Both the position numbers and the translations under genes were made by a program. A stretch of DNA of 64,000 bases from assembly GCA_052426225.1 (NCBI GenBank), contig JBNJNM010000015.1, positions 1,864,186 to 1,928,185 of the forward strand, read 5' to 3'. This document shows, piece after piece, positions 6,835 through 41,958 of the stretch. Position 1 is the first letter of the stretch. Each line of letters starts with the position of its first letter. The notes beneath the pieces are model-generated. The model did no database searches. It saw only the letters and a program-made list of their open reading frames with translations, and was not told where the DNA came from. Source of the stretch: Zancudomyces culisetae HAW-14-8. Lineage: Eukaryota > Fungi > Kickxellomycota.

Positions 6835-6955
6835 TGTCAGAATCGCATTATTTACCCATAAGTTTTAATATTTATTTTTAATCATATTTAACTACCTTTG
6901 AATCCTAACTTGGGAACATTAAGTTTCCCAACTTAAATAAATTAGTTTCCTGACA
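6835..6955 (+). repeat. B1 5' LTR (121 bp)
   Basis: TGTCAG...CTGACA; identical to 12315-12435. Confidence 0.97.
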
Positions 6956-6957
6956 TT

Positions 6958-6968
6958 TTGGGAAACTT
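6958..6968 (+). promoter_or_regulatory. Self-priming PBS of B1
   Basis: TTGGGAAACTT is the exact complement of LTR AAGTTTCCCAA (6921-6931); no tRNA-type TGG primer match. Confidence 0.7.
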
Positions 6969-6990
6969 CTAATTATTGGTTGAAGAGTTA

Positions 6991-7944
6991 ATGATGGTCC
7001 ACCAATTAGATGAGATCGCAAAATTAGCTATGCAACAAGCTTTGCAAGAAAGTCAAGCTCAAGCCCAGGCTCAAGCCCAGACACCCGCCCAAGTCCCCAG
7101 TCAGTTGCAGAATTTGCCTGCACCAAATCCGCAGCCAAGGATTGATGGTATCAGAATACCAGAAATCCAGAAATACTCAGGAGAATCAGGAAGGTTCCGA
7201 GCCTTCACCGCCGAGATCAAGCGCCAGTTCTGGGCCAGACCAGACGTGTTCCAGAGTGACCATAACAAGATATGGTTCATCAGTTCTCACCTTGCCGGTC
7301 ATGCTGCCCTGTGGTTCGATAACCTTATCGATACCCAATCACCGTTGCTCTCAGATTTCAAAGGGTTTGAGAATGAATTTCAAAAGAGATTCTCAGATCC
7401 TGGCCACCAAGCCCGAGCTATCACCCAGCTTCATAGTTGCCGCCAGTCCCAGCGTTCCGTCCTGGAATTTGCAACCGAGTTCAGAAACCTCGCCTCTCTC
7501 AGTGGATTCAACGAGCCAGCCAAAATCCACCTGTTTTACATCGGATTGGATACTAGCCTTGTCCAGCGCCTTGCCACTGAACCGCTACCAAACACCTTGG
7601 ACCAGCTCATTGATCAGGTGATTGAGCTTGAGAACAGAATCAATGCCCGCAGTGCCTACCTGCCCAAGAGAAGCGTCCCATTCCGCAACTGGAGTACTCC
7701 GGCTCCACCGGTCTTCCCCCGTCCAGCCATGCCTGTCCCAGATCACCAGGCTCCTGAACCAATGGACGTTGATGCCGTCACCTCCCGTCCAAGAGCACCG
7801 CTAGATACAGCCGAACGCCAGAGAAGATTAGCCAATAATCTTTGTCTATACTGTGGTCAGCCGAACCACATTCTCCGTAACTGTCCGCTCCGCAGGCCAA
7901 GACCCCCTATACCTGGGGTGCCAAAAGACAGTGCTCAGATGTAG
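6991..7944 (+). CDS. gag: Gag of B1 (first ATG at 6991; ORF track begins at TTG 6976)
   Basis: CRQSQRSVLEFATEF, PEPMDVD, CLYCGQPNHILRNC. Confidence 0.93.
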   Translation: MMVHQLDEIAKLAMQQALQESQAQAQAQAQTPAQVPSQLQNLPAPNPQPRIDGIRIPEIQKYSGESGRFRAFTAEIKRQFWARPDVFQSDHNKIWFISSHLAGHAALWFDNLIDTQSPLLSDFKGFENEFQKRFSDPGHQARAITQLHSCRQSQRSVLEFATEFRNLASLSGFNEPAKIHLFYIGLDTSLVQRLATEPLPNTLDQLIDQVIELENRINARSAYLPKRSVPFRNWSTPAPPVFPRPAMPVPDHQAPEPMDVDAVTSRPRAPLDTAERQRRLANNLCLYCGQPNHILRNCPLRRPRPPIPGVPKDSAQM

Positions 7945-10900
7945 TCCGGGAGTTACTCCTGAGCGTAGCTAATAATTCTAATATTTCTAGTAATAAATTT
8001 CATATTAAAGTTGTTTTAAATAATCTATACGAACTTGTTGCATTAGTGGACTCCGGTGCTTCAGCCAACTTTATTCGTCAAGATTTATTAGAAAAACTAA
8101 ACCTCCCAACCAAAGAAGCTGAAAAAACCATCGTCCTAGAAAGTGTTGATGGTCACCAGATATACCCAGGGGGCATAAATGTCAAGGTTGATAATGCCCA
8201 TATCAAGTCCGGTCCTAACCACTCTGAACACCTAGACCTTATCCCGATTCCAACCAATCACGCTGACATTATTTTTGGATTACCCTGGTTACGCAAACAC
8301 AATCCTAGTATAACTTGGCCAGACCTCCAGATCCACTTCGACTCTGACTTTTGCAGTACAAATTGTGTTGATACCCACTCCATCCAGGCCGTGTTCAAGT
8401 CACCTGATGAACCAGATCCAGATCCAGTAGAACAAAATATTAGCCAGAATACGTCCACAAACTCAACTATCCTCCAAAGGGTGTTGAATAGATTATCAAC
8501 TACCCTGCTTCCACACAGTGCCAAGTTGCTCGAATCGGTCAAGTTGGACGATTCAAACACTGAAAATCAAAGATTTTCACCGCCTCCGTCTCCTGATCTC
8601 CCCAGCCCAGCTCCGTCAAATCCATACGCCAGAATTGAAGAGATTCTACCTGTACCTGTTCCTGCACCAGTCCAATCAGTCACTCCAGAACCTGAAACCC
8701 AAAGTTTGCCCAAACCCGCAGCTATTGAGAACCCAGTAGATAACCATGTTGTCAAGCAAATTCCTGATCCCCGTCGTTCAGTAACCCCTGTGCCAAAAGT
8801 ACCACTCAGACCTGAACTTCCCAAAGCAATCCTGAAGAAAATTGAGCCAAGAGAACCAGTCGTCAGATGTCGGCCATTTCATAAAAATACCCCAGTCACC
8901 ACCCCCGAGCCAGAATATTCCTTGGATCCAGATCCTGTAACTTTTGCCGTTTCTGAGTCCCCACTAGAGTACTTGGAAGAATTTCCGCAACTTCCAGTAA
9001 TATACTCTGAATTCAAGGAAGTGTTCAATCCCAAGTCTGCCGTTTCACTTCCTCCTCACCGCCGTTATGACTGTCCTGTCAACACCAAAGAGGGTTACAC
9101 CCCATACTGGGGGCCAATATACCCGCTATCGGAAGTAGAGTTAGAGTCTCTAAGAGGTTACATCCGCGAAAACCTCACCAATGGCTTCATCAGACGCTCT
9201 GTCTCCCCTGCTGGTGCACCAATCATGTTTGTAAAGAAGAAGTCTGGTGACTTGCGCCTTTGTGTTGACTACCGCCGATTGAACGAAGCTACCATCAAGA
9301 ATAGGTACCCATTACCTAGGATTGATGAGGCGTTCGATCGGCTGCGTACAGCCAAGGTCTTTACAAAATTGGATCTCAAAGGTGCCTACAACTTAGTGCG
9401 GATCAAGGAAGGTGACGAGTGGAAAACTGCATTTAGGTGCAGATATGGCCACTTTGAGTACCAGGTCATGCCATTTGGCTTGACAAATGCTCCCGCCACC
9501 TTTCAGCACTTTATCAATGATGTGTTACGAGATGTATTGGATCTCTATGCAATTGCATACCTTGACGACATCTTGATATTTTCCAATGACACTGACACTC
9601 ACATCAATCATGTGAAATCTGTTCTGAAAAAGCTGCTTGAAAATGGTCTGTACTGTAACGCCGAAAAATGTCACTTCCATATCAGGGAAGTTGAATTTCT
9701 AGGCCATGTTGTGTCTTCAGATGGAATAGCCACCGATCCTGCTAAAGTCAAGTGTGTAAAAGAATGGCTACCACCCACCAATGTTAAGGAGGTCCAGAAG
9801 TTTCTCGGTTTTGCCAATTACTACCGAAAGTTTATCCCATACTTTTCGCTGAAAGCCCTGCCAATCACAAGACTTCTGAAAAAGGATACACCGTTCGTTT
9901 GGAGTAAGGAGGCAGGTGAAGCCTTTAATACTCTTATCCAGGATCTCACCACTTCCCCCGTTCTCAGATACCCTGACCCAGGAAAACAGTTTATTCTGGA
10001 AACTGACGCCTCAGACTACGCCATTGGGGCTGCTCTGTCCCAAGAAGATGAAAACGGTGATCTCCGTCCTTGTGCCTACTATTCTTACAAACTCAACACT
10101 GCCGAATCCAACTATAATATCTATGACAAGGAACTCTTGGCAATCATCAAGGCTCTCAAAGAATGGCGACATCATCTGGAAGGCTCCTCCATCCCGTTCA
10201 AGATTCTTACTGACCATAAGAATCTGGAGACCTTTAAAAATCTGAAGTCACTCAACAGAAGACACGCAAGGTGGTCTCTTGATCTCAGTAGATTCAGCTT
10301 CATCATAACCTACAGGCCTGGATCTCAAGGAGGCAAACCTGACGCTCTTTCTCGTTTGCCCAATCACACACCTGATAAGGTCGCCAACAACAACATCATA
10401 GGCGAGGACCACTTCTTAGACATTATCAGCATAGTGGACAGTGATTTTGCTCAAGAAATCGCCAAATCCAGCAAAGCCCATCTAGAAGGATTATTGGATG
10501 CCGCAAGATACCAGAGCAGCCATAAGTCTAACGAGCCAGTAGAAGTTGAAGATGGAATTGTAATGCTTGGAAACCGTGTTGTCGTCCCCGACAAAATGAA
10601 GCCGCAAGTTGTAAGTTCTAGACATGACAGTGGCCCAGCCGGCCATTTTGGCGCTAAGAAGACATTGGAGCTCGTGGAACGAGACTTTTGGTTTCCAGGA
10701 ATGCGCAAATTTATTAAAGAGTTTGTTCAAACCTGTGATACATGCAATAGATCAAAGGACAGAAGACACAAAGTTTACGGTAAACTACTTCCGCTACCCG
10801 CTCCCTCAGGCCCATGGAAATCTATCACCATGGATTTCATAACTGATCTTCCTCCATCCAACAAGCACACTACTATTATGGTAGTTGTAGACAGGTTCAC

Positions 10901-11873
10901 TAAAATGAGCCATTTCATCCCGCTTAAGAAGCTGCCATCCTCAGAAGAAACTGCCTCCGCCTTCTTTACCCACGTATTCAAGCTTCATGGACTACCAGAC
11001 GTCATAATCTCTGACCGTGGAACCCAATTCTCGTCCAAATTTTGGAGTTCACTATTCAAACTGCTCAAAGTTGATACTAGAATGTCTACAGCCTTCCATC
11101 CAGAGACAGACGGTCAAACGGAGCGGGTGAATCAAACATTGGAACAGTATCTACGCTGTTTCATCAACTATCAGCAAGATAATTGGTTTGAACTGCTCCC
11201 AATTGCCGAATTTGCTTATAACAACACTCTCCACTCCAGCACTAATACTTCTCCTTTCTTTGCTCTATATGGTTACCATCCAAGATTTGATCCTCAAATC
11301 ACTAAAAACGTTCACGTCCCCAGCGCTTCTGATAGGATAAAACAACTCAAAGAACTTCAATCAGCCCTCACTTCCATACTTAACAAGAAATCTCAGGAAT
11401 ATAAAAAGTATGCTGATGTAAACCGATCTGAACATCCAAAGTATAAACTAGGTGACAAGGTTTGGCTATCCAGCCAAAATATCAAAACTCAAAGGCCTTC
11501 TAAAAAGCTTGACCACAGACTTCTAGGCCCTTTCACCATCTCTAAAATTATCAATCCTGTTTCTGTCCGTTTAGACCTCCCGCCAACAATGAAAATCCAT
11601 AACACTTTTCATGTCTCGTTATTGGAACCGTATATCGAACCCAGCAGTAACCGCAGATTATTAAACAGTCTTCCTCCACCTCTAATTATAAATGGAAATA
11701 AAGAATATGAAGTTAAGGCTATTTTGGATTCTAAGCTTGTTAGGGGTAAAAAATATTACTTGGTTGATTGGAAAGGCTTTGACATAAGTGAAAGAAGCTG
11801 GGAGCCGATTGCAAACATAAACGCGCCTCAACTATTGAAAAAATACTATAAGACATATCACAACAAACCATAA
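7920..11873 (+). CDS. pol: Pol of B1: protease, Pro-rich spacer, RT, RNase H, integrase, chromodomain; -1 frame relative to gag
   Basis: LVDSGAS, YLDDIL, TDASDYAIG, HHCC, DFITD...SDRG...QTERVN, YEVKAILD...WKGF. Frame is open upstream of 8046 into the gag overlap; start inferred. Confidence 0.95.
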   Translation, partial: AKRQCSDVVRELLLSVANNSNISSNKFHIKVVLNNLYELVALVDSGASANFIRQDLLEKLNLPTKEAEKTIVLESVDGHQIYPGGINVKVDNAHIKSGPNHSEHLDLIPIPTNHADIIFGLPWLRKHNPSITWPDLQIHFDSDFCSTNCVDTHSIQAVFKSPDEPDPDPVEQNISQNTSTNSTILQRVLNRLSTTLLPHSAKLLESVKLDDSNTENQRFSPPPSPDLPSPAPSNPYARIEEILPVPVPAPVQSVTPEPETQSLPKPAAIENPVDNHVVKQIPDPRRSVTPVPKVPLRPELPKAILKKIEPREPVVRCRPFHKNTPVTTPEPEYSLDPDPVTFAVSESPLEYLEEFPQLPVIYSEFKEVFNPKSAVSLPPHRRYDCPVNTKEGYTPYWGPIYPLSEVELESLRGYIRENLTNGFIRRSVSPAGAPIMFVKKKSGDLRLCVDYRRLNEATIKNRYPLPRIDEAFDRLRTAKVFTKLDLKGAYNLVRIKEGDEWKTAFRCRYGHFEYQVMPFGLTNAPATFQHFINDVLRDVLDLYAIAYLDDILIFSNDTDTHINHVKSVLKKLLENGLYCNAEKCHFHIREVEFLGHVVSSDGIATDPAKVKCVKEWLPPTNVKEVQKFLGFANYYRKFIPYFSLKALPITRLLKKDTPFVWSKEAGEAFNTLIQDLTTSPVLRYPDPGKQFILETDASDYAIGAALSQEDENGDLRPCAYYSYKLNTAESNYNIYDKELLAIIKALKEWRHHLEGSSIPFKILTDHKNLETFKNLKSLNRRHARWSLDLSRFSFIITYRPGSQGGKPDALSRLPNHTPDKVANNNIIGEDHFLDIISIVDSDFAQEIAKSSKAHLEGLLDAARYQSSHKSNEPVEVEDGIVMLGNRVVVPDKMKPQVVSSRHDSGPAGHFGAKKTLELVERDFWFPGMRKFIKEFVQTCDTCNRSKDRRHKVYGKLLPLPAPSGPWKSITMDFITDLPPSNKHTTIMVVVDRFTKMSHFIPLKKLPSSEETASAFFTHVFKLHGLPDVIISDRGTQFSSKFWSSLFKLLKVDTRMSTAFHPETDGQTERVNQTLEQYLRCFINYQQDNWFELLPIAEFAYNNTLHSSTNTSPFFALYGYHPRFDPQITKNVHVPSASDRIKQLKELQSALTSILNKKSQEYKKYADVNRSEHPKYKLGDKVWLSSQNIKTQRPSKKLDHRLLGPFTISKIINPVSVRLDLPPTMKIHNTFHVSLLEPYIEPSSNRRLLNSLPPPLIINGNKEYEVKAILDSKLVRGKKYYLVDWKGFDISERSWEPIANINAPQLLKKYYKTYHNKP

Positions 11874-12011
11874 GAGCAACATTATATTATATTAATTAAC
11901 CAATATTATACCTAAATACTTATCAAAAAAAACTATAAAAACAACCTAAAAACAACTAAAAAGCATAAAAAATTATAAAAGAAAAAATAAAAAAGAATGA
12001 ACTTAGGAGGG

Positions 12012-12192
12012 CGCTAACGTCTTGGGCCACACAATCACGTGATTCGAATTAACTGCTCGAGATCCCGAAGGAGTTATCGGAGAGGTGAAACGGTCCGGTA
12101 CTAGTCCCGAAGGACGTTATCGCGCACATTGGCCCCGTGAAACATCACATCCACTCTACAGCTAATTACTTCCCAATTACGGTCTTACAGCG
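12012..12192 (-). ncRNA. Unknown ~180-nt structured RNA in the B1 3' UTR (antisense)
   Basis: Nested stems, two cUUCGg tetraloops, homology with covariation to 23372-23546; T-run downstream at 11989-11994. Confidence 0.7.
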
Positions 12193-12256
12193 AAGGATCG
12201 AACCAGGGTCCTGCAGAATACAAGTTCGACGCCTTAGCCACTCGACTATAAGCTCA
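12193..12256 (-). promoter_or_regulatory. tRNA-derived head with Pol III A and B boxes
   Basis: A box TAGTCGAGTGG (12238-12248), D-arm-like GTCGAGTGGCTAAGGC, B box GGTTCGATCC (12195-12204); acceptor, anticodon and T stems pair poorly. Confidence 0.7.
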
Positions 12257-12314
12257 CATTTTTGTCCAAGATATTATTTTTATATATTTAAAATATTCTT
12301 TGAAGGGGGGATAA

Positions 12315-12435
12315 TGTCAGAATCGCATTATTTACCCATAAGTTTTAATATTTATTTTTAATCATATTTAACTACCTTTGAATCCTAACTTGGGAACATT
12401 AAGTTTCCCAACTTAAATAAATTAGTTTCCTGACA
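12315..12435 (+). repeat. B1 3' LTR
   Basis: Identical to 6835-6955. Confidence 0.97.
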
Positions 12436-20790: not shown

Positions 20791-21271
20791 ACCCAAATTT
20801 TATTCGAACTGTATTTGAATCGATTATTAACGGTTAACACATTTCGGATAAGATTAATTAAAAGATTTTATGGAAGGAAACGTTGATGACGATAATACGA
20901 AAGCTATAATATTAATAATTTCTACGTTATAAAAATTAACAATAGTTAGCTAATACACATATTGAGAAATGAATGAACTTTTCAAATATATATATAAAAT
21001 AATGCAATTAATTACGAACAAATTTTTCAATTTATACTAACATTCTTAATTTATTGTCAAACCGAAGTATTACACAAATTTTCAATAATTTGTAATTTAA
21101 TTTCATAACGAAAATCACCTAAGAATTCAAATACCAGAATATATTAAAAGTGAAATAATATTCGCAAAAATTGATTTTTCAGCAAACATGTATTATTCCG
21201 TGATATTTTCAAAGTTCAAATATTCTTAAACGTGGAAAAATTAATAAATCAATATTGCCTTGCATCCTATC

Positions 21272-21388
21272 TGTTAGAAGTTAACTATGTACTGTATGAA
21301 ATAACAAAATGTTTTTTTATATTATAATAACATTGTAATCTAACTAGGAAACATAGATTCTCAACTATAATAAATTAGTTTCCTGACA
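21272..21388 (+). repeat. Diverged solo LTR related to family B
   Basis: Ends in ATAAATTAGTTTCCTGACA, identical to the B LTR; starts TGTTAGAA; 117 bp. Confidence 0.6.
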
Positions 21389-21505
21389 CTGAAATATGAA
21401 ATTTTTAAATCTAAAATGTCAAACTCTTTAATATATAATGAAGTAAGAAAATATTTAACCTTCGATAATCAAGGTCTTGCAACCACGGTTTTAATCATAA
21501 AATAC

Positions 21506-21910: not shown

Positions 21911-22879
21911 TTTTCTTGTCTATAAAGTAATTAACCCGACAAGATTTGTTAAATTAACCTTATTAAAAAATATTCAATCTTCATTTTATATTTCTACAAC
22001 CAATATATAACTTATCAAAAGAATAATAACATATAAAACATGTTGATAATATTCACAAGTCATATTTACATTATTCATATAGAATTTAATTAAATTTTGT
22101 CAATTATAAATCTATTGTCGGAAATATCCATTTTATCCGACCAAATTTACATGTACATAAAAAATATTAAATTATATATATTATATTATAGTCATACGGA
22201 ACAAAATATTATGAAGAATTTATTTATTCTATAAAATCAGGATAAATAATTAAGTATAGAATATGACATATTCGACTTACTACATTATTAGTATTTAAAT
22301 ATAAGATTGATATTTGCATTATGATGTCTACAAACAAACTAAGAATTATCTTAAATAATCACTAAATTATACAAATTTTATATTATAATTTTTAATTATA
22401 AACGCAGTATAGATAATAAAGGATATGTCTAGTAGACTGAAAAGTAGATCATATGTAAAATGTTGTTATTAATAAAATTTCTTGAGTAATACAAAATTCT
22501 CTTCATTCTATTTCTTAATATAATGCCAGTATATTTCAACATTAATCATGACATTCGAAATTAAATTACGAAAATTATTTAATTACTATTTGAGAGCAAA
22601 TTTCTCAAATAGAACTTATTGAAAAAAAATATTATGTAAATTAAGCAATAGATAGGTATTATGAAAACATCTAATAACACGACATTTGCTGCGCCATTTT
22701 CAAGTTATACATTCAATTTATAATTTAGTAACCTGTCACAGAACGCGTTTTATTGGTTAAACAGGTTGTAATTCTTAAGGAATTAATGCTAGTCAAAAGC
22801 TATTAATTAAAACCTAATTAAATATTAAAACAAATGTTATGGAATGTTAGATGTCACCAGATTAACCATACCAGCTCCC

Positions 22880-23864
22880 CGTCTCAATGAACAAATATCC
22901 AGTTTTTTATGTTTCGCTAAAGGATAAATATTCATCTCCAGTGATTTGTGATCAACAAGCCACTACGGAACCTAAATATTATCAACTACAAACTAGAGTA
23001 TGAAATTAAGGAAATACTCGATTCAAAAATTAACAGAAATAAACTTAGTTTTTTGATACATAGGAAGGGATACAATATTAATGAACGAACTTGGAACCAA
23101 AAGCAAATTTATCTGCAAACCAACACATAAAGACTTCCATACTCAATTTCCATCAAAGCCAAAATAACTATCAAATCGTAAAAAAAAATATATATATAAA
23201 ATTTAATATAATAAATCAAAATAACAAACAACAACAAACACCATAGTCAATATAAAATATTACAAATTAAAAAAATTATTTCAATTTTCTCATAATAATA
23301 TTTATATGCCAACTTTCCCTAACGAAATTAGTAAATAAAATCGAGAATACTCGCTTATATATTAACCGAGTTAACTGAAAGATCGTATGGGAGAAGATGA
23401 ATCAGCTGGTGAGAATGTGGGGCTATAGGCGGCCAATGTGCGCAAGCGAAAGCGAGCACCGGGGCCTCCCACATCTTCTTAATTTCCTTTAGGATGCCGG
23501 TACTGATTCGCGGATCACCGAATGGTGTGGCACTCAACGTTAGTTATGTTTTAAAAATATTAAGTCGAATATCCCAAAATTCGATATCATATTTTAATAT
23601 ATTACTATTATTAAAAAAATAAACCAATCAAACAAAAAAATATAATTAATATAATTATTTTAAAAAAACTCAAATTTACCATTAGTATAAAAGTATACTT
23701 TAATACCTTTTTGGAGAGGGATAATGTAACAATAAATAATGTTACATCTTATTACCCATAATTATATTATACAATTATTCTTCTACATAATCATTTGAGT
23801 TATGCTTTGTTGTAATTACCTAAGTATTACAACCTGTTTAACCAACAAAAGTCGTTAGGTGACA
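22880..23864 (+). mobile_element. Element C: 3' remnant of a short-LTR chromovirus (chromodomain, 3' UTR, PPT, 140-bp LTR at 23725-23864)
   Basis: YEIKEILDSK...HRKGY; PPT GGAGAGGGATAA resembles B; related LTRs on - strand at about 22734-22800 and 27754-27894. Confidence 0.75.
23372..23546 (+). ncRNA. Homolog of the B-family structured RNA, sense orientation in element C
   Basis: GC-rich island sharing GGCCAATGTGCGC, AGYACCGG, TCCTTnnGGAT and ACGTTAG, with a GAAA tetraloop and compensatory stems; followed by TTTT. Confidence 0.7.
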
Positions 23865-27753: not shown

Positions 27754-27894
27754 TTGTCACAGAACGAGATTTATTGAATAAACATGTTGTAATTCTAAGA
27801 GAATTACAACGAAGCATAAACGAAATGATTAAATAGAAGATAAAATATTAAGATTAATTATGGATAATAAGAAGTAATATTATTGGCTATAACA
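27754..27894 (-). repeat. Solo LTR of family C
   Basis: Reverse-complement similarity to 23725-23864; TGTCAC...TAACA. Confidence 0.65.
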
Positions 27895-28389
27895 CATTTA
27901 CTGTTATTATTTCTGTGATACTACGGTTCCTATTGCCGTGACGCTTACACTAGTATCCTAAATATACTTTTTACTACAATCTAGTGAATACTATGGCAAT
28001 TTTCGGAACTTTTTCTATTATTGAAGCAAATGTAATAGTGAACTTTAATCTATTATACTTTAACATTCTGGCTTTTGTATCCGTTTGTTAATTAATAAAC
28101 TATTATGAAATCTTAGCAAATCCTGGAATATATAATATATTATTTTATTAATCTTAGTATAAATTATAATTTTTGTATCTATTTTTAACTTTTTCCAATT
28201 GTTAATATTATACTATATTAATTATATTTTTTCTACTATGAAATGTTATAATTTATTTAAATATGATCTACAATTATCAGATATTTATATGATTTGAATA
28301 AATACATTTATTTCGATTCAATGATACTAAATTAATATTTTGCCAAATGATCATACAAGATTCAAAGAAATATACATATTGTCAAAAAA

Positions 28390-30217
28390 CTAGTAATAGT
28401 TATCGATAAACTCTTGCAGAATTTGATTCATTATTCTCTGAAAAGTACTTGGTGCGTTACATAAGCCAAATAGCATCACCGTATATTCATAACTACCATA
28501 TCTAGATACAAATGCAGTCTTTTCTATTGATTCTTCGTCCATCCTTATTTGGTGATATCCACTGCTTAGATCCAGTGCTGAAAAGTATTTTGCCCCTCCT
28601 AGCCTATCGAAACAATCCTCCATCAAAGGTAATGGATATCTATCTTTAATTGTTACTTTATTTAACGCCCTATAATCTACACACATACGAAATTTACCAT
28701 CTTTTTTCTTTACTAATAGTACTGGGCTAGCCCAAGCCGAAGTTGAAGGTCTGATCATTCCCTTTTTTACCAGCCCCTCTATTTGTTCTTTAACTTTTTT
28801 TTAGCTGTTTATCTCCGTGTCTGTCCATCTGTCTGGCAAATGGGAGTGCATCCCATGATACTATTTATGCCTTTTTCTAAAGTCGCGTTTCCACCAATGT
28901 GCTCTGTATCAAATGAGCTTTTGATTTGTCCAATATACTTTTTAATTCTACGGGTGGGTTGTTATCTTGGGTTGATTGTTCGTTTTTGTTAAAAATAATA
29001 GGCCAGACCTCGCTAACTTGTCTATTTATAAGTATTTGTTTAATGTGTTTCTACTAGTTACGAATCTGGCAAATTGTGCGCCATTATAAAGTTATTATTT
29101 TGCTTTATTATCATTATCTTCATACAAATACTTGTACTATTATCGAAATGAATCTTATTTTATATCCAGAAATCAATCCCTATTAACATTCCACATTTAA
29201 CCCTTGAATAATTATTAACTTAATTTGTCTTATTCTTCGCCAAATGTGATTTCAGTATTGACCATTTTATCGCATGTAGCTATAACACCGTTTGCCATTC
29301 TTGCCTTGACAGGTGTTGATGGTTCTTAAATTAATCCGAGTTTTTTTGATAACTCATTTGAAATAAAACTTGTTATTGCGCCGGAGTCTAATAGAATTTT
29401 TACTCCAATATTGTTTATAATGCCATTACTCATCGGTCTATTATCCGTGTTCTGGTTGCCGACTTCGTACATATTTTCAACTATTTCTTCGAAATCGACC
29501 ATTTTTTGATCCTCATCGTCTGATAATCTCAGATTCTCCGTTTTTCGAGCAGTTCGTTCACTCGTCTATCGGATTCGTATTTCTTGTCGGCTCAATTGAT
29601 GTCTGTACTGTCGTCTATACTCGATTGGCTTGTTGATGTATCGATTTCATCTTCGAGTAATTTGTTTACTGTTTTTCGCCACTCTAGGTTTATGGAGTTA
29701 CTAGCTATATTCTGTTGTTTAACATTATAATTAGCTTATTATTTTTAACTTTAGATTATTATATATTTCTTCAGTGTAATTGTATTAGTTTTATGACTAT
29801 ATCTTTTCACTTTTTATTGAATTTTCGTCATTATTGTTTAAAAATGTATTATCTTTAAACTACGTTATTTGATGAATTGTTTATTTAATCGGCTTTTAAA
29901 TGGTTATTAGTATTAATTTCTATTTAAAATGGCATTATAGTTATAAATTGCCTTTATCCGTTTCAATTCGATCACGTCTTTATCATTTTCATCAAATAGC
30001 TTTTATAACCATTGTCGGAAAGCGTTAATACAATTTTTTTGGGTGCATAAGATTATAAGTTCCTTGTCAATCCAAAGAATGGGAACCTTAAACTTTTGAT
30101 AACAGACGTTAGCTATAGGACTTCTTCCACAATTGAAACATATTCAATATGATGTAAAGAATTTTTTTCCTTCATCAGTATTTGTGTCTACTGGTATTCG
30201 CTCGCCAGCAACTACTA
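28390..30217 (-). pseudogene. Decayed Gypsy gag-protease-RT (family I-like), interrupted by a Tc1 element
   Basis: FRMCVDYRALN, LDLSSGYHQI, LLDSGA; gag motif GERIPV shared with about 44083-44100. Confidence 0.8.
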
Positions 30218-30219
30218 TA

Positions 30220-31779
30220 CAGTGAGTTTCTAAAATGTCTCAAAATAATGATAATAATTTTCAAAGTGTAATATATCGCTCAATAATATCCAGTAATTAA
30301 ATAATTTTATATAATATAATGCACAATTGGTATAATTTAATTTTATAAAATTAGTATTATTATTGGTTAAAAATTCATTATAATTAAAACTGAAAAAATT
30401 TTAAAAATGAGACAATTTTGGGAATTTTTCAAAAAAAAACTTTAAAATTCTGTCCACCTTCCTTTAGACTTGATAACTGCCTCAACTCTTTTGGACATAC
30501 TATCTATAAGACCAACTATTGTTTCCACTGAAATTAAATTCCATTCCGTTTCTATTCATCCCATAATTCGATCATCCCGGACGGAGGTTTACTGTATCTA
30601 TTTAGGCGTCTTTTCATGATTGCCCATATACTTTCGATTGGGTTTAAGTCTGGAGGTTGTGGCGGCCAGTCCAATGTATTATATTCCTGGTTTTCAAGCC
30701 AGCTGGTAACTAACTTCGCGGTATGTTTAGGATCATTGTCATGTTGAAATATTATTGACTTGGGATCCAACTTGTAGTACTTTATTGTATTGCTAAGCTC
30801 GTCTTTTAAAATGTTTAAATAACCTTCCTTGTTTAACATTCCTTCTATTCGGCACATGTAGCCAGTTCCAGATGCTGTGATGCATCCCCAAATCATTAAT
30901 GATCCTCCACCGTGTTTTACGGTCTGGTTAATATTGTGCGGCTGTAGACTCACACCATCACGAACCCAAGTCCATTCATTTCCATCAGATCCAAATCGGT
31001 TGATTTTAGTTTCGTCGGACCAAATTACTCGTCTCCAATCATCAGTAGTCCAGTAGCGATGAGATTTTGCGAATCTCAACCTTTTTGCAATATTTTTAAG
31101 ACTCAGTTTCGGTTTGGAGGTTTTTTTATTTGCAACGGCTTATAAATCATTTAATGCCCTATGTATTGTAGACTTACTAGCACTAACAATATATCGATTT
31201 CTAACTTCCATTGTATTGAAGTAGCAGATCGATACTCTCCAGATAATATCATCATAGTACATATTCGCTTGCTTTGGGGTGAAAGCTTCGTTGGACGACC
31301 GCGTTTATTAGCCGGTAAATTGATATTCATTGCTGCTTTTATTCTGTATATTGTTGCTTTACTAACTCCATTTATTATAATGATTTGGTCAATGCTTCTG
31401 CCTTCAAGTAACGCGTTTTTAATATCCAGTTTACGTTGTTCAGATATCACATTTTAAAAAATTATTATTTTGATTAGTATAACAATTATATATATTATTA
31501 TATTTAAAAGTTTAAAAATTTAAAAATTGAATTCATAAAGTTATGATAGTTTAAATTTTTTTTTTGAAAAATTCCCAAAATTGTCTCATTTTTAAAATTT
31601 TTCAATTTAAAATTTCACTATGAATTTTTATCCAATTAATTTACAGTTTATATAAAATTAACATATAACATTTGTGCATTTTATAATATAAAAAACATAT
31701 AATTTCTGGATATTATTGAGCGAGATATTACACTTTGAAAATTATTTTCAATATTTTGAGACATTTTTGAAACTCACTG
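30220..31779 (-). mobile_element. Tc1/mariner DNA transposon with long (~220 bp) TIRs
   Basis: TA|CAGTGAGTTTC...GAAACTCACTG|TA; transposase fragments inside. Confidence 0.93.
30445..31453 (-). pseudogene. Tc1-family DD34E transposase, frameshifted
   Basis: GRPTKL, IWSDETK, FQHDNDPKH, PDLNPIE in split ORFs. Confidence 0.9.
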
Positions 31780-33849
31780 TATGTACTATGTTAATTTGCT
31801 TGTGACCTTTGTTCCGTTTTAACATATTTAGATTTTATTTGTCTCAATAGATTAAAATTTGAGTGAATCTACATCATTATAACATATTGTGTAAACTTGA
31901 CCTTTTGTTATAACTAGATTTATTTTATTACGTATAAGAACTTGTATTAGAAAAATATTAACTTTATTAAACTAAAGAGTTTATTTTTCACTGGCCATTT
32001 TCACAACGAATTCTTATATTTTACATACTTTGCCTTCAAATAAAAACGTCATATAAAAATCAAAGGTCAAAAGACCTTGTATATCGAAGAATATTTATTG
32101 TCTTACTTCGATTAATTTCAAGGAGTTTGACCCTTGATTAATTTCATGATTTTCAAAATTGAGGTTAGTTTCATCATTGAGTTGTTTTGATTTATGTAAA
32201 ATATTAATAATTACTCGAAAATTGAATAGGTAATAATTATTTCATGATATTTTATATCAAATATGTAATTAAACGAAATGGGAAATTCATCACATATATT
32301 TAATTTACAGAAATAGATTTAAAATTAAAAAGACACAATTTATATAACATAATTCTATTCACTTATCAACTGAGAATTTATAAATATATAATTATGTAAG
32401 ATTTGATATAAATTTATAGTTACTACAAGATTAGAATATCAATTATCAATTATAATGTTATTATATTTTTAATCGATTTTTAAATAACTCAATAACATAT
32501 CACTATCCAAATAATTTAATATGCAAATATATTGGATTAATAATATCTTAATAATAGTATCGAAATAAGACAAAACCACATTCAAAAAAGTTGTTTAACA
32601 TGAAACATCTATGGTTAATTATATAGCTATTAGAAGTTATAAAAAATGTTTTATAAAAACATTAATCGATTAAAGAGAATATTAAAGATAATTTATTGTT
32701 TTAAGAAGTACAAAACAACAAGTAGAATAGTTCTACATAGTATTATAAATACAAAGTGTTGGATAATTATTAAGTATAATAGAAATAGTTTATGGATAGT
32801 TCTAATGAATTTAGTAATTCATTTACATAACAATAATATTATTTAATTTATAGACCATATATTACTAGTATAATATATTTGTAATTATATATATCGAATT
32901 AATTAAAAAATTTTAATTAAAAATTCGAATTTACTATAAACATTGAAGTAATTTATATATTACTTGATAATTTTTAAAATAAATTTTGTATAGAACAACT
33001 TGAATGTTAAACAAGCTTTATAATATTAATTACAAGAACAAGTATCGATCATTTATATGTGTTTAAAAACCAAAGTTTATGCATTAATTTTTCTATTTCT
33101 CATCTGATTAAAATTGATAAATATTATAATCATGTACTAAACTAAATATTTTTCAGCCAGTAATGACATTCAGAAATCAAAATCTATTAAAATCTCAAAT
33201 ACTAATTCTGTTTCAAGAGTAAAATAGGTACCGCCTTGAATCAGACCATTTGCTAATAAGATCGATACTTATCAATATTGATCGTTCTTGAGCAACAACT
33301 ATTAAAGTTTTTACTGAAAAACCATTGACTCATTTGAGTTTACATTATTGATCAATTTAATTTGCTAATTAAGAACTCATCAACAAATAGGGCAAACTTA
33401 ATAACTAACTAGATTTGTATTAATATAGTTATTAAAAGCAATCGATTATAATAGTATTATAGCATTCGAGAGAAAATTAAAATCAATTAATGTGCAAACA
33501 ATACAGATATTATTCTTAAAATGAAAAATATAAATTCGTAAATATTCGCTTCATGAAGCGTGTATTTAAAAATATTTTGTAACCAGATATGTGGTATTAA
33601 ATGCAGCGCAAAGTAAAATTTCTTATATTTTATTTTTATAAAGCAAACGAATAAACAGATACTACTAAATAAAATAAGATACTGCTAATCGCATTAAGGT
33701 CAAGTAAATCACTCAAGGACATCTTCAAAGATACGTTTACCTATACACAGTTGATGATGATATTTAAAAGGATCAGTCAATAATATATCTAAAGTTATGA
33801 AATCGTGGATAAGCGATTAAAAAAAGCTGAAGACAGACAAAAATATTAC

Positions 33850-35229: not shown

Positions 35230-35409
35230 TGTCAGGAAACTAATTTATTTAAGTTGGGAAACTTAATGTTCCCAAGTTAGGATTCAAAGGTAATTAAATA
35301 TGATTCTAAATAAATATTAAAACTTATGGGTAAATAATGCGATTCTGACATTATCCCCCCTTCAAAGAATATTTTAAATATATAAAAATAATATCTTGGA
35401 CAAAAATGT

Positions 35410-35676
35410 GAGCTTATAGTCGAGTGGCTAAGGCGTCGAACTTGTATTCTGCAGGACCCTGGTTCGATCCTTCGCTGTAAGACCGTAATTGGGAAGTAAT
35501 TAGCTGTAGAGTGGATGTGATGTTTCACGGGGCCAATGTGCGCGATAACGTCCTTCGGGACTAGTACCGGACCGTTTCACCTCTCCGATAACTCCTTCGG
35601 GATCTCGAGCAGTTAATTCGAATCACGTGATTGTGTGGTTCAAGACGTTAGCGCCCTCCTAAGTTCATTTTTTTTT
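35410..35676 (+). ncRNA. tRNA-headed structured RNA unit in B2 (A box 35417-35427, B box 35461-35470, body 35473-35653, T9 terminator 35668-35676)
   Basis: Near-identical to the B1 unit; the only body change (CC to TT) converts G-C to G-U pairs. Confidence 0.72.
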
Positions 35677-35790
35677 ATTTTTTCTTTTATAATTTTTTAT
35701 GCTTTTTAGTTGTTTTTAGGTTGTTTTTATAGTTTTTTTTGATAAGTATTTAGGTATAATATTGGTTAATTAATATAATATAATGTTGCT

Positions 35791-38700
35791 CTTATGGTTT
35801 GTTGTGATATGTCTTATAGTATTTTTTCAATAGTTGAGGCGCGTTTATGTTTTCAATCGGCTCCCAGCTTCTTTCACTTATGTCAAAGCCTTTCCAATCA
35901 ACTAAGTAATATTTTTTACCCCGTACAAGCTTGAATCCAAAATAGCCTTAACTTCATATTCTTTATTTCCATTTATAATTAGAGGTGGAGGAAGACTGTT
36001 TAATAATCTGCGGTTACTGCTGGGTTCGATATACGGTTCCAATAACGAGACATGAAAAGTGTTATGGATTTTCATTGATGGCGGGAGGTCTAAACGGACA
36101 GAAACAGGATTGATAATTTTAGAGATGGTGAAAGGTCCTAGAAGTCTATAGTCAAACTTTTTAGAAGGCCTTTGAGTTTTGATATTTTGGCTGGATAGCC
36201 AAACCTTGTCACCTAGTTTATACTTTGGATGTTCAGATCGGTTTACATCAGCATACTTTTTATATTCCTGAGATTTCTTGTTAAGTATGGAAGTGAGGGC
36301 TGATTGAAGTTCTTTGAGTTGTTTTATCCTATCAGAAGCGCTGGGGACGTGAACGTTTTTAGTGATTTGAGGATCAAATCTTGGATGGTAACCATATAGA
36401 GCAAAGAAAGGAGAAGTATTAGTGCTGGAGTGGAGAGTGTTGTTATAAGCAAATTCGGCAATTGGGAGCAGTTCAAACCAATTATCTTGCTGATAGTTGA
36501 TGAAACAGCGTAGATACTGTTCCAATGTTTGATTCACCCGCTCCGTTTGACCGTCTGTCTCTGGATGGAAGGCTGTAGACATTCTAGTATCAACTTTGAG
36601 CAGTTTGAATAGTGAACTCCAAAATTTGGACGAGAATTGGGTTCCACGGTCTGAGATTATGACGTCTGGAAGTCCATGAAGCTTGAATACATGTGTGAAA
36701 AATGCGGAGGCAGTTTCTTCTGAGGATGGCAGCTTCTTAAGCGGGATGAAATGGCTCATTTTAGTGAACCTGTCTACCACTACCATAATAGTAGTGTGCT
36801 TGTTGGATGGAGGAAGATCAGTTATGAAATCCATGGTGATAGATTTCCATGGGCCTGAAGGAGCGGGTAGCGGAAGTAGTTTACCGTAAACTTTGTGTCT
36901 TCTGTCCTTTGATCTATTGCATGTATCACAGGTTTGAACAAACTCTTTAATAAATTTGCGCATTCCTGGAAACCAAAAGTCTCGTTCCACGAGCTCCAAT
37001 GTCTTCTTAGCACCAAAATGGCCGGCTGGGCCACTGTCATGTCTAGAACTTACAACTTGCGGCTTCATTTTGTCGGGGACGACAACACGGTTTCCAAGCA
37101 TTACAATCCCATCTTCGACTTCTACTGGCTCGTTAGACTTATGGCTGCTCTGGTATCTTGCGGCATCCAATAATCCTTCTAGATGGGCTTTGCTGGATTT
37201 GGCGATTTCTTGAGCAAAATCACTGTCCACTATGCTAATAATGTCTATGAAGTGGTCTTCGCCTATGATGTTGTTGTTGGCGACCTTATCAGGTGTGTGA
37301 TTGGGTAAACGAGAAAGAGCGTCAGGTTTGCCTCCTTGAGATCCAGGCCTGTAGGTTATGATGAAGCTGAATCTACTGAGATCAAGTGACCACCTTGCGT
37401 GTCTTCTGTTGAGTGACTTCAGATTTTTAAAGGTCTCCAGATTCTTATGGTCAGTAAGAATCTTGAACGGGATGGAGGAGCCTTCCAGATGATGTCGCCA
37501 TTCTTTGAGAGCCTTGATGATTGCCAAAAGTTCCTTGTCATAGATATTATAGTTGGATTCGGCAGTGTTGAGTTTGTAAGAGTAGTAGGCACAAGGACGG
37601 AGATCACCGTTTTCATCTTCTTGGGACAGAGCAGCCCCAATGGCGTAGTCTGAGGCGTCAGTTTCCAGAATAAACTGTTTTCCTGGGTCAGGGTATCTGA
37701 GAACGGGGGAAGTGGTGAGATCCTGGATAAGAGTATTAAAGGCTTCACCTGCCTCCTTACTCCAAACGAACGGTGTATCCTTTTTCAGAAGTCTTGTGAT
37801 TGGCAGGGCTTTCAGCGAGAAGTATGGGATAAACTTTCGGTAGTAATTGGCAAAACCGAGAAACTTCTGGACCTCCTTGACATTGGTGGGTGGTAGCCAT
37901 TCCTTTACACACTTGACTTTAGCAGGATCGGTGGCTATTCCATCTGAAGACACAAAATGGCCTAGAAATTCAACTTCCCTGATATGGAAGTGACATTTTT
38001 CGGCGTTACAGTACAGACCATTTTCAAGCAGCTTTTTCAGAACAGATTTCACATGATTGATGTGAGTGTCAGTGTCATTGGAAAATATCAAGATGTCGTC
38101 AAGGTATGCAATTGCATAGAGATCCAATACATCTCGTAACACATCATTGATAAAGTGCTGAAAGGTAGCGGGAGCATTTGTCAAGCCAAATGGCATGACC
38201 TGGTACTCAAAGTGGCCATATCTGCACCTAAATGCAGTTTTCCACTCGTCACCTTCCTTGATCCGCACCAAGTTGTAGGCACCTTTGTGATCCAATTTTG
38301 TAAAGACCTTGGCTGTACGCAGCCGATCGAACGCCTCATCAATCCTAGGTAATGGGTACCTATTCTTGATGGTAGCTTCGTTCAATCGGCGGTAGTCAAC
38401 ACAAAGGCGCAAGTCTCCAGACTTCTTCTTTACAAACATGATTGGTGCACCGGCAGGGGAGACAGAGCGTCTGATGAAGCCATTGGTGAGGTTTTCGCGG
38501 ATGTAACCTCTTAGAGACTCTAACTCTACTTCAGATAGCGGGTATATTGGCCCCCAGTATGGGGTGTAACCCTCTTTGGTGTTGACAGGACAGTCATAAC
38601 GGCGGTGAGGAGGAAGTGAAACGGCAGACTTGGGATTGAACACTTCCTTGAATTCAGAGTATATTACTGGAAGTTGCGGAAATTCTTCCAAGTACTCTAG

Positions 38701-39741
38701 CGGGGACTCAGAAACGGCAAAAGTTACAGGATCTGGATCCAAGGAATATTCTGGCTCGGGGGTGGTGACTGGGGTATTTTTATGAAATGGCCGGGATCTG
38801 ACGACTGGTTCTCTTGGCTCAATTTTCTTCAGGATTGCTTTGGGAAGTTCAGGTCTGAGTGGTACTTTTGGAACAGGGGTTACTGGACGACGGGGCTCAG
38901 GAATTTGCTTAACATGGTTATTTACTCGATTCTCAATAGCGGTGGGTTTGGGCAAACTTTGGGTTTCAGGTTCTGGAGTGACTGATTGGACTGGTGCAGG
39001 AACAGGAACAGGAAGAATCTCTTCAATTCTGGCGTATGGATTTGACGGAGCTGGGCTGGGGAGATCAGGAGACGGAGGCGGTGAAAATCTTTGATTTTCA
39101 GTGTTTGAATCGTCCAACTTGACCGATTCGAGCAACTTGGCACTGTGTGGAAGCAGGGAAGTTGATAATCTATTCAACACCCTTTGGAGGATAGTTGGGT
39201 TTGTGGACGTATTCTGACTAATATTTTGTTCTACTGGATCTGGATCTGGTTCATCAGGTGACTTGAACACGGCCTGGATGGAGTGGGTATCAACACAATT
39301 TGTACTGCAAAAGTCAGAGTCGAAGTGGATCTGGAGGTCTGGCCAAGTTATACTAGGATTGTGTTTGCGTAACCAGGGTAATCCAAAAATAATGTCAGCG
39401 TGATTGGTTGGAATCGGGATAAGGTCTAGGTGTTCAGAGTGGTTAGGACCGGACTTGATATGGGCATTATCAACCTTGACATTTATGCCCCCTGGGTATA
39501 TCTGGTGACCATCAACACTTTATAGGACGATGGTTTTTACTGCTTCTTTGGTTGGGAGGTTTAGTTTTTCTAATAAATCTTGACGAATAAAGTTGGCTGA
39601 AGCACCGGAGTCCACTAATGCAACAAGTTCGTATAGATTATTTAAAACAACTTTAATATGAAATTTATTACTAGAAATATTAGAATTATTAGCTACGCTC
39701 AGGAGTAACTCCCGGACTACATCTGAGCACTGTCTTTTGGC
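35791..39741 (-). pseudogene. pol: Pol of B2 (TAA at 39520-39522; 1-nt deletion near 35932)
   Basis: Near-identical to B1 pol; longest open part 35902-39270. Confidence 0.93.
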
Positions 39742-40670
39742 ACCCCAGGTATAGGGGGTCTTGGCCTGCGGAGCGGACAGTTACGGAGAATGTGGTTCGG
39801 CTGACCACAGTATAGACAAAGATTATTGGCTAATCTTCTCTGACGTTCGGCTGTATCTAGCGGTGCTCTTGGACGGGAGGTGACGGCATCAACGTCCATT
39901 GGTTCAGGAGCCTGGTGATCTGGGACAGGCATGGCTGGACGGGGGAAGACCGGTGGAGCCGGAGTACTCCAGTTGCGGAATGGGACGCTTCTCTTGGGCA
40001 GGTAGGCACTGCGGGCATTGATTCTGTTCTCAAGCTCAATCACCTGATCAATGAGCTGGTCCAAGGTGTTTGGTAGCGGTTCAGTGGCAAGGCGCTGGAC
40101 AAGGCTAGTATCCAATCCGATGTAAAACAGGTGAATTTTGGCTGGCTCGTTGAATCCACTGAGAGAGGCGAGGTTTCTGAACTCGGTTGCAAATTCCAGG
40201 ACGGAACGCTGGGACTGGCGGCAACTATGAAGCTGGGTGATAGCTCGGGCTTGGTGGCCAGGATCTGAGAATCTCTTTTGAAATTCATTCTCAAACCCTT
40301 TGAAATCTGAGAGCAACGGTGATTGGGTATCGATAAGGTTATCGAACCACAGGGCAGCATGACCGGCAAGGTGAGAACTGATGAACCATATCTTGTTATG
40401 GTCACTCTGGAACACGTCTGTTCTGGCCCAGAACTGGCGCTTGATCTCGGCGGTGAAGGCTCGGAACCTTCCTGATTCTCCTGAGTATTTCTGGATTTCT
40501 GGTATTCTGATACCATCAATCCTTGGCTGCGGATTTGGTGCAGGCAAATTCTGCAACTGACTGGGGACTTGGGCGGGTGTCTGGGCTTGAGCCTGGGCTT
40601 GAGCTTGACTATCTTGCAAAGCTTGTTGCATAGCTAATTTTGCGATCTCATCTAATTGGTGGACCATCAT
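39717..40670 (-). CDS. gag: Gag of B2
   Basis: Two amino-acid differences from B1 Gag. Confidence 0.92.
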   Translation of the reverse strand: MMVHQLDEIAKLAMQQALQDSQAQAQAQAQTPAQVPSQLQNLPAPNPQPRIDGIRIPEIQKYSGESGRFRAFTAEIKRQFWARTDVFQSDHNKIWFISSHLAGHAALWFDNLIDTQSPLLSDFKGFENEFQKRFSDPGHQARAITQLHSCRQSQRSVLEFATEFRNLASLSGFNEPAKIHLFYIGLDTSLVQRLATEPLPNTLDQLIDQVIELENRINARSAYLPKRSVPFRNWSTPAPPVFPRPAMPVPDHQAPEPMDVDAVTSRPRAPLDTAERQRRLANNLCLYCGQPNHILRNCPLRRPRPPIPGVPKDSAQM

Positions 40671-41958
40671 TAACTCTTCAACCAATAATTAGAAGTTTCC
40701 CAAAATGTCAGGAAACTAATTTATTTAAGTTGGGAAACTTAATGTTCCCAAGTTAGGATTCAAAGGTAATTAAATATGATTAAAAATAAATATTAAAACT
40801 TATGGGTAAATAATGCGATTCTGACAATACGGTTTGATATTAAGGACTACAAAAATCATTTCTAGTACAATTAATTGTTCCTCCTCAGTTATGATTTGTA
40901 ATATCATTACTGATTTTATGATATGAATATTATATTTATATAGAATCAAGTTTCTAAAGATGAATATATGAATTAGTGTGTATAATATTTTTTAGTAAAC
41001 TATAAATACTATTGTAGATTGTAGTTGTATTATCATAACGAACACTTGTAAATATAATTGAATTTAATATTTAAATATGTGCATATATATATTATGTTCT
41101 TGCTTTTTGCTACTTTCTATCTATAAATTAATGTTGTTGGTTGTATCTGATTATAATAGTTATATTCTTTATGATTTAGAAATATGAATAACCATGTATT
41201 GTTCTTCGTTGGTAGTTACATATTTATCTATTCGAAGCTGCTTTAAAAAGTTAATATATTATTTATCTAATAATAGGTGTAGAAAGCTATATCTATTAAA
41301 CTATTATTAAAATAATTAAAAATATTAAAGTTACTTAGTCAGCTGTTAGATATCGTTATGTATTTGTGAAAATTATAAGAATAAATATTAATTCTAGAAA
41401 CGATAATGATTATTTTCACTAAAAATGGTATTTGGTATAAATAGCATAATTTTTCAATCTTGGTATCTGAAAATATTATATAAATACAAGAATAAAATTT
41501 GGTTGATCAAAATAGTGCTAAGTATATTTGTGATTAGGTTGGTAATTTGAATTTCCAAAATTATTTATCAGAGTTTGTGAGGTTGATTTAAAGTTCTTCC
41601 GATTCATTGGAAAAATGACCATGAATACCGACATTCCGTGTCGGAGCATCTATAGGGATAGGATTGGGGCTGGGTTTGTATCAGCCCTATAATTATCCTT
41701 GATATATTCGGCTTGAGCTTTTTTTAGCCCAAATTTTAGTAGGTAATCACCAAGATTCGGTGATTTTTTTCAAGCAATAATTTATCTATGATTGTTTCTT
41801 AGAGCAGTTTTGGATTCGTTGAGTTCATGTAAGAATCTTTGTAATATTTGGTAGTTTGAATGTTTGTTGTAGAATATGAATAATGGAACAATGATTTTAG
41901 AAGGTTTATTGGTCTTTATAGCTATAATTTTTTAACTTGTATGTGTTTTTAATATGTA

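Follow-up and report, generated by a model that had tools for sequence, protein, structure and literature searches.

A 64,000-nt window of the Zancudomyces culisetae genome (the whole stretch of DNA analyzed here) holds three copies of an RNA body that almost certainly represents a genuine conserved RNA structure and that is carried, in opposite orientations, by two families of Ty3/gypsy chromovirus. Copies in one family (B) lie within a decayed tRNA frame, and its promoter-like and terminator-like signals make it probable that the B copy is a Pol III transcript. To judge from the letters of the DNA, the RNA is real, unclassified, and more organized than in a preliminary description of this region, to which the tRNA frame, the A/B boxes, the 7-bp closing stem, and the T-run in B are new; its function is hypothetical.

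Two chromovirus families carry the RNA body

The window is a subtelomeric repeat field with a GC content of 34%, made up of Ty3/gypsy elements and Tc1-like transposons, and a TTAGGG array begins at about 62.4 kb. The carrier elements and the three RNA bodies are as follows.

6835-12435, plus strand: chromovirus B1 (5.6 kb, 121-nt identical LTRs, 5-bp target duplication)
12012-12192, minus strand: B1 copy of the structured RNA body, antisense to its carrier
22872-23164, plus strand: integrase tail/chromodomain remnant of element C, with stops and frameshifts (tblastn pieces, E 6e-8 to 5e-10)
23372-23546, plus strand: C copy of the structured RNA body, in sense to its carrier
23713-23724, plus strand: PPT of element C, directly before the 3' LTR
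23725-23864, plus strand: 3' LTR of element C, 140 nt, similar to the LTR at 27755-27884
35230-40826, minus strand: chromovirus B2 (98.7% identical to B1, pol frame interrupted, no matching target duplication)
35473-35653, plus strand: B2 copy of the structured RNA body, antisense to its carrier (2/181 differences from B1)

Element B1 carries gag and a 1330-aa pol frame in the order PR-RT-RH-IN-chromodomain, with its PPT at 12302-12314. This domain order, the C-terminal chromodomain, and an LTR-complementary priming site identify the carrier as a Tf1/sushi-type Ty3/gypsy chromovirus; the site (6940-6970) is complementary to the element's own LTR, which is the self-priming type that needs no tRNA primer. 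B1 is, by all appearances, a recently mobile element: its LTRs are identical, its pol frame is open, and it has a target duplication. Among the 120 matches listed for pol, the named relative with the best identity is from Cunninghamella (61%). B1 and B2 differ at 57 of 3929 positions in pol vs 4 of 972 in gag, and B2 is possibly a recombinant. Across the RNA unit they differ at 2 of 258 positions, which is not clearly below the rate in pol.

What was identified of C as a chromovirus comprises the chromodomain remnant, the PPT, and the LTR. Short LTRs and similar PPT-LTR junctions are common to B and C (LTR z 3.7; 4.8 for the C-family LTR), although these are weak statistics, and the kinship of the two families is likewise weak (z 2.8 for the C vs A LTRs; chromodomain identity 54% vs 48-49% over 39-48 aa). 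Diverged LTRs related to those of B and C also occur at 21270-21389 and 27755-27895, neither with the RNA upstream. Elsewhere in the window, the 356-nt LTRs of chromovirus D (50664-56300) are identical, and its pol frame, open over 1323 aa, includes a low-complexity tract of 6-nt repeats at 54650-54800; D adjoins an older related element, E (56301-62236), which neighbors the telomere. Two Tc1-like DNA transposons (30217-31782 and 41954-43567) have long terminal inverted repeats of about 230 and 210 nt.

The bodies, 175-181 nt long, form three GC-rich islands that are among the GC peaks of the window. Their homology is evident by sequence alone (nhmmer E 1.6e-8 for B1 vs C and 5.5e-9 for C vs B1, the next match in the window having E 1.3), and B and C align ungapped outside the apical cap, with 94 of 162 positions identical (i.e., 42% of aligned positions differ). 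The preliminary description had placed the islands between the chromodomain and the PPT, and all three window copies do occupy this slot, with none lying free. The opposite orientation that it reported is also real: in B1, pol is on the plus strand and the island on the minus strand, whereas in C both the integrase/chromodomain remnant and the island are on the plus strand. In three other chromovirus families of the window (A, D, and E), the PPT sits at the pol stop itself and there is no such insert, so the insert is accessory.

Island C has a GC content of 0.51 and few broken pairs, vs 0.30 for the adjacent pol remnant, which is broken by stops and frameshifts. The island may have been kept under selection after the death of its element; C itself is undatable.

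Covariation supports a conserved fold

The coordinates, strands, and ordered motifs of the preliminary description are all present in the DNA, and so are all six stem pairs that it quoted. The caps are found as well, two of the UUCG type in B and the GAAA one in C. Its observation that the differences between B1 and B2 turn G-C into G-U pairs also holds, for 2 of the 181 body positions, both in the second stem.

Unconstrained RNAalifold, run jointly on B and C, arrived at a fold of -35.8 kcal/mol that holds 17 double changes and breaks no pair. The opposite strand folded at only -24.1 kcal/mol, which favors the strand named earlier (antisense in B, sense in C). Neither of two sets of nulls (500 re-lettered, 500 column-shuffled) contained one that came up to either value. 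A covariance model built from B1 and B2 only scored C at 89.8 bits, the next best match reaching 10.5. A sequence-only model scored C at 31.6 bits, and structure thus contributed a gain of 58 bits, partly circular because the structure in the model was drawn with C in view. RNAalifold on the ungapped B/C alignment is the less circular test.

In a hand-made model, 97.4% of 152 cells pair and 16 of the 52 pairs change on both sides; 10 of these double changes lie in two helices that are slipped by 1-2 nt between B and C, and 6 are free of slippage. Single-sequence folding was unexceptional against shuffles (z-scores of -1.15 and -1.44 for C and +1.75 and +1.51 for B1), and the hand-made fold lies 7-8 kcal/mol above the minimum free energy of each sequence. 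The predicted structure is therefore supported by covariation, not by stability, and the covariation comes from two independent families only.

The lower part of the predicted fold consists of a 5-bp terminal stem, a 6x1 internal loop, short stems, and a first three-way junction with a small 3' hairpin. In the upper part, a 9-bp stem leads to a second junction with a 3-bp hairpin and to a long arm, which ends in a variable cap and contains two internal loops, both invariant. Columns 60-63 could pair over a long range with columns 172-175; these 4 bp are invariant and show no covariation. Conserved positions number 38 of 67 among unpaired and 56 of 96 among paired positions; since loops are thus no more conserved than stems, protein binding through the loops gains no special support. 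The fold contains no long perfect duplex of the kind expected for a Dicer substrate. In B, a perfect 12-nt palindrome spans the small 3' hairpin (12031-12042 and 35623-35634) and could permit RNA dimerization; it is absent from C.

A tRNA-derived frame with Pol III signals surrounds the B copies

The body of B sits inside the T-arm of a decayed tRNA-Thr-like frame, the parts of which are listed below together with the flanks of C.

12193-12255, minus strand: tRNA-derived head of B1 (5' acceptor strand 12255-12249, A box 12248-12238, B box 12204-12195)
11989-12011, minus strand: 3' part of the B1 frame (linker, 3' acceptor strand and discriminator A 12005-11998, T6 run 11994-11989)
35410-35472, plus strand: tRNA-derived head of B2 (A box 35417-35427, B box 35461-35470)
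35654-35676, plus strand: 3' part of the B2 frame (3' acceptor strand 35660-35667, T9 run 35668-35676)
23353-23371, plus strand: possible, weak tRNA-frame remnant 5' of body C (acceptor-like 7-mer shared with B, partial A box)
23561-23585, plus strand: 3' flank of body C (acceptor-like 5-mer and a hairpin with arms that match the B head hairpin)

The B head, 63 nt long, immediately precedes the body. Over both strands of 62.3 kb, an A box and a B box spaced as in a tRNA were matched only twice, in B1 and B2, each time just 5' of a body and on the strand that folds. On the 3' side, the B body is followed by a linker of 6 nt, by 7 nt that are complementary to the head's first 7 nt, by an A, and by a T-run (T6 in B1, T9 in B2). 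A 7-bp acceptor-like closure of this kind arose in a fraction of 0.0028 of 20,000 shuffles. In tRNA numbering, the closing stem of B carries G3-U70 and A73, which are alanine identity marks. The predicted transcript would be about 260-270 nt long and antisense to its element.

ARAGORN found no tRNA in the window. When the body was excised in silico, none of 418 boundaries yielded a tRNA at the default threshold, and tRNA-Thr(TGT) was called at 6 of 418 boundaries at the 95% threshold and at 54 of 418 at 90%. A functional or intron-containing tRNA was accordingly rejected as a candidate, there being no default-threshold cloverleaf with or without the insert. Because excision yields tRNA calls only at relaxed thresholds, we regard the frame as a promoter or scaffold and not as a working tRNA. 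The head refolds into two hairpins once the body is constrained. The longest complementarity between the B unit and the rest of element B is 9 nt, which is the chance level.

The preliminary description proposed a separately transcribed RNA. B1 and B2 lend this support, with the features of a type II Pol III gene (boxes in tRNA spacing and a T-run) in addition to the acceptor-like closing stem; C, which lacks intact boxes and has only a T4, does not, and it could be just part of the sense RNA of its element. In C, the T4 (23549-23552) precedes the 3' hairpin, which includes a B-box-like arm. A strict pattern of the two 6-nt hairpin arms has three sites in the window: in B1 and B2 it precedes the body, whereas in C it lies on the 3' side. 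A looser pattern picks up two unrelated sites. A motif test of the C flank vs the B head gave 0.00075 post hoc, whereas unbiased alignments were not significant (0.30, 0.80, 0.087, and 0.124). These similarities are suggestive, as a lead only, of rearranged and decayed fragments of the tRNA frame in C.

Database searches and a third variant

The preliminary description could match the RNA to no known family, and a search of the 64 kb with Rfam 15 agrees, giving no match at the gathering threshold. For B1 and B2, no Rfam 15 covariance model matched at E<=10; around C there were two chance matches (E 5.5 and 7.8), located at the flanks. The Rfam classes of tRNA, SRP, RNase P/MRP, snRNA, snoRNA, known ribozymes, and VA gave no covariance-model match. 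By eye and by Rfam, there was no support for the VS ribozyme junction order, a lariat-capping ribozyme, a group I core, group II domain 5, a fungal SRP Alu domain, retroviral export elements, or T-loop motifs. Telomerase RNA was also rejected: the longest telomere-repeat match on either strand is 5-7 nt, and a template of about 1.5 repeats is absent.

A core pattern produced 84 matches in viral contigs and 64 in metagenome contigs, all of them chance matches by nhmmer and by eye, and only chance matches were likewise obtained with a three-part pattern in prokaryotic genomes (n = 23) and a 3' pattern in viral contigs (n = 3). The covariance model found nothing at E<=0.1 over these 174 loci. Of two protein-led searches, one returned no loci and the other nine distant Ty3/gypsy loci, none with the RNA, and blastn gave one chance match in phages and none in plasmids. 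The collections searched are mostly prokaryotic or viral with little eukaryotic DNA, and these blanks consequently say little about the range of the RNA.

A public sequencing run of uncertain type (X1) contained a single 177-nt contig (depth 4.9) with a near-identical B-type body. It differs from 12053-12202 at 2 of 150 letters, and its remaining 27 letters resemble the stretch of the body that comes next; read at face value, it is a third variant. One of its changes, in the cap, is the letter found in C; the other change and the loose end leave the third stem ambiguous. The loose end hints at a length change in the 3' strand of this stem that is unmatched on the 5' strand, and it keeps 10 of the 12 nt of the B palindrome. 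The run has no close cover of the B pol region or of island C, a blank that we do not count as evidence.

Comparison with known systems

Accessory Pol III RNAs are a feature of animal DNA viruses and a few retroviruses, and the tRNA-type promoters found in LTR elements are those of non-autonomous elements. Adenovirus VA RNA and EBV EBER, as portrayed in the pertinent sections of PMC4378190, resemble the B RNA in being about 160-180 nt long, highly structured, of Pol III type, and accessory to a virus-like element; VA RNA is a decoy for PKR and Dicer. The differences are that there is no sequence or Rfam match, that the carrier here is a Ty3/gypsy retrotransposon, that the body is framed by a tRNA remnant, and that a decoy role would apply here by analogy only. 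According to the same sections, the tRNA-pre-miRNA chimeras of MHV68 and the Pol III pre-miRNAs of BLV and foamy viruses share with B a tRNA-type (type II) promoter and a location within a viral or proviral genome, and they are short hairpins behind an intact tRNA or between the boxes (PMC4378190). In contrast, B has a branched 181-nt domain inside a decayed tRNA T-arm and no long miRNA-like hairpin.

The TRIMp3 elements (Helenus, Cassandra, and Ajax) are LTR elements with tRNA- or 5S-derived Pol III promoters and conserved A/B boxes, and fungal Helenus heads have been aligned to tRNA-Thr, as the corresponding passages of PMC10886601 relate. Their promoter is inside both LTRs, whereas the boxes of B are internal, 60-110 nt from the 3' LTR, and its LTRs have none. 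TRIMp3 elements are also non-autonomous and smaller than 1 kb, whereas B1 spans 5.6 kb with gag and a full pol. Set against Helenus and Cassandra as described there (PMC10886601), the B unit is thus internal, single, antisense, and part of an autonomous element. A tRNA-derived SINE (SINE2) likewise combines a tRNA head with boxes, an unrelated body, and a Pol III terminator, a head of this kind being found here in B only; unlike such a SINE, the unit shows no LINE-like tail or duplication and no dispersed copies in the window, and it has a 3' acceptor strand after the body.

Li and Breaker (2017) also identified fungal structured ncRNAs by covariation (PMC5640933). The motifs named in their main text, with which the comparison was made, are gene-associated or belong to HDV/group I, and that text contains no occurrence of retrotranspos*, transpos*, or LTR (PMC5640933). 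For chromoviruses, the relevant part of PMC2864245 lists only protein additions as cargo. A large covarying RNA as cargo of an autonomous chromovirus was found neither in Rfam nor in the literature searched, outside which most subscription journals lie.

Candidate roles of the RNA

Taken together, a trans-acting, protein-binding RNA fits the constraints best. That pairing was retained although 42% of aligned positions differ implies selection on the RNA, either within the elements or before it entered them, and we lean slightly toward the view that it was selected for the benefit of the element in trans. Our tentative proposal, which we would put just short of an even call, is that the B RNA is its own Pol III transcript and serves in trans as a protein-binding decoy that benefits the element, possibly by blunting silencing. 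TFIIIC would bind the A/B boxes of B, and Pol III would then make a 260-270 nt RNA antisense to the element that ends at the T-run. The acceptor-like stem would join and protect the RNA ends, and the folded body would present its loops to a host protein. The cassette would already have been present in an ancestor shared by B and C, and one of the two lineages would have inverted or re-framed it. There are precedents for viral Pol III RNAs in VA RNA, EBER, the MHV68 tRNA-chimeras, and the BLV and foamy RNAs, as the relevant sections of PMC4378190 recount, and a decoy against host defense is our committed guess, drawn by analogy with VA RNA and EBER (PMC4378190). It is rather unlikely that the target is specifically the silencing machinery.

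Orientation independence had been taken to argue for a trans-acting RNA. It also fits a passenger or a DNA-level Pol III barrier. As a passenger, the RNA would be a host non-coding RNA or a SINE-like Pol III unit, headed by a tRNA, that got into the 3' untranslated slot of chromoviruses on one or two occasions and does not serve them. The opposite orientations are compatible with independent insertions, run X1 also contains a near-identical body, and a tRNA-derived head with intact boxes and a decayed cloverleaf is the signature of SINEs and TRIMp3 (in the passages of PMC10886601 that treat them). Against this, none of the three copies in 62.3 kb of repeat-rich DNA is free, no A-tail or flanking duplication is visible by eye at the B unit, and the body lies inside the tRNA frame, not behind it. 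Moreover, a neutral passenger would not maintain pairing across such divergence, and neither an Rfam host family nor a telomerase-type template was found. We consider this explanation unlikely, although it survives better than the other alternatives.

Retroviral export elements lie between pol and the PPT. The position of the RNA recalls this arrangement, and C has it in sense without intact Pol III boxes, so that in the C lineage it might be a cis signal of the genomic RNA (for export, packaging, translation, or decay control), with B an inverted derivative that gained a promoter. However, the recently mobile B1 tolerates an antisense copy, which disfavors any such signal; the reverse strand folds much worse by RNAalifold, and it is on the antisense strand that the differences between B1 and B2 turn G-C into G-U. 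The earlier argument that the RNA is not a simple packaging signal is supported, and a cis role appears quite improbable.

Still less probable is a chromatin device, in which the Pol III unit, as a barrier of the tDNA type, would keep a chromovirus transcribable despite its targeting to heterochromatin, and the RNA would be a stabilized by-product or a tether. The elements do have chromodomains and lie in a subtelomeric repeat field, and the fission-yeast tDNA barrier, which requires TFIIIC and Pol III, is independent of orientation (as the pertinent part of PMC2040200 describes); but a barrier leaves the conservation of the fold unexplained, C keeps the body and not intact boxes, and families A, D, and E manage without such a device. 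A catalytic RNA, whether a novel ribozyme or an insert that cuts itself out of a tRNA in the manner of an intron, is the least probable of all: its size, two three-way junctions, and invariant internal loops would resemble large ribozymes, the possible 4-bp long-range pairing is invariant, and the body interrupts a tRNA-like frame, but there is no Rfam ribozyme match even at E 10, excision gives no default-threshold tRNA, the long-range pairing shows no covariation, and self-cleavage, which the preliminary description had entertained, would in C sever the genomic RNA upstream of the PPT and remove its 3' end.

To return to the decoy proposal, its boldest form, which we hold to be possible but somewhat unlikely, is that an autonomous Ty3/gypsy lineage has a Pol III gene of its own for a non-coding RNA whose structural class is new and which, as a trans anti-silencing factor, would be a counterpart of VA RNA. 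The same reading would see in the unit a tRNA-scaffold cassette with a G3-U70/A73 stem, in which structure was selected despite flips of strand and of promoter layout.

Significance

By analogy, the RNA, which belongs to no Rfam family, would work like a viral accessory Pol III RNA. If real, it would constitute a new structured RNA family and a natural tRNA-scaffold expression cassette, and it would suggest, in a form open to testing, how retrotransposons could counter RNA silencing with no protein involved. Even the duller outcome, in which two elements captured an unannotated host RNA, would bring to light a family of eukaryotic ncRNA absent from Rfam.
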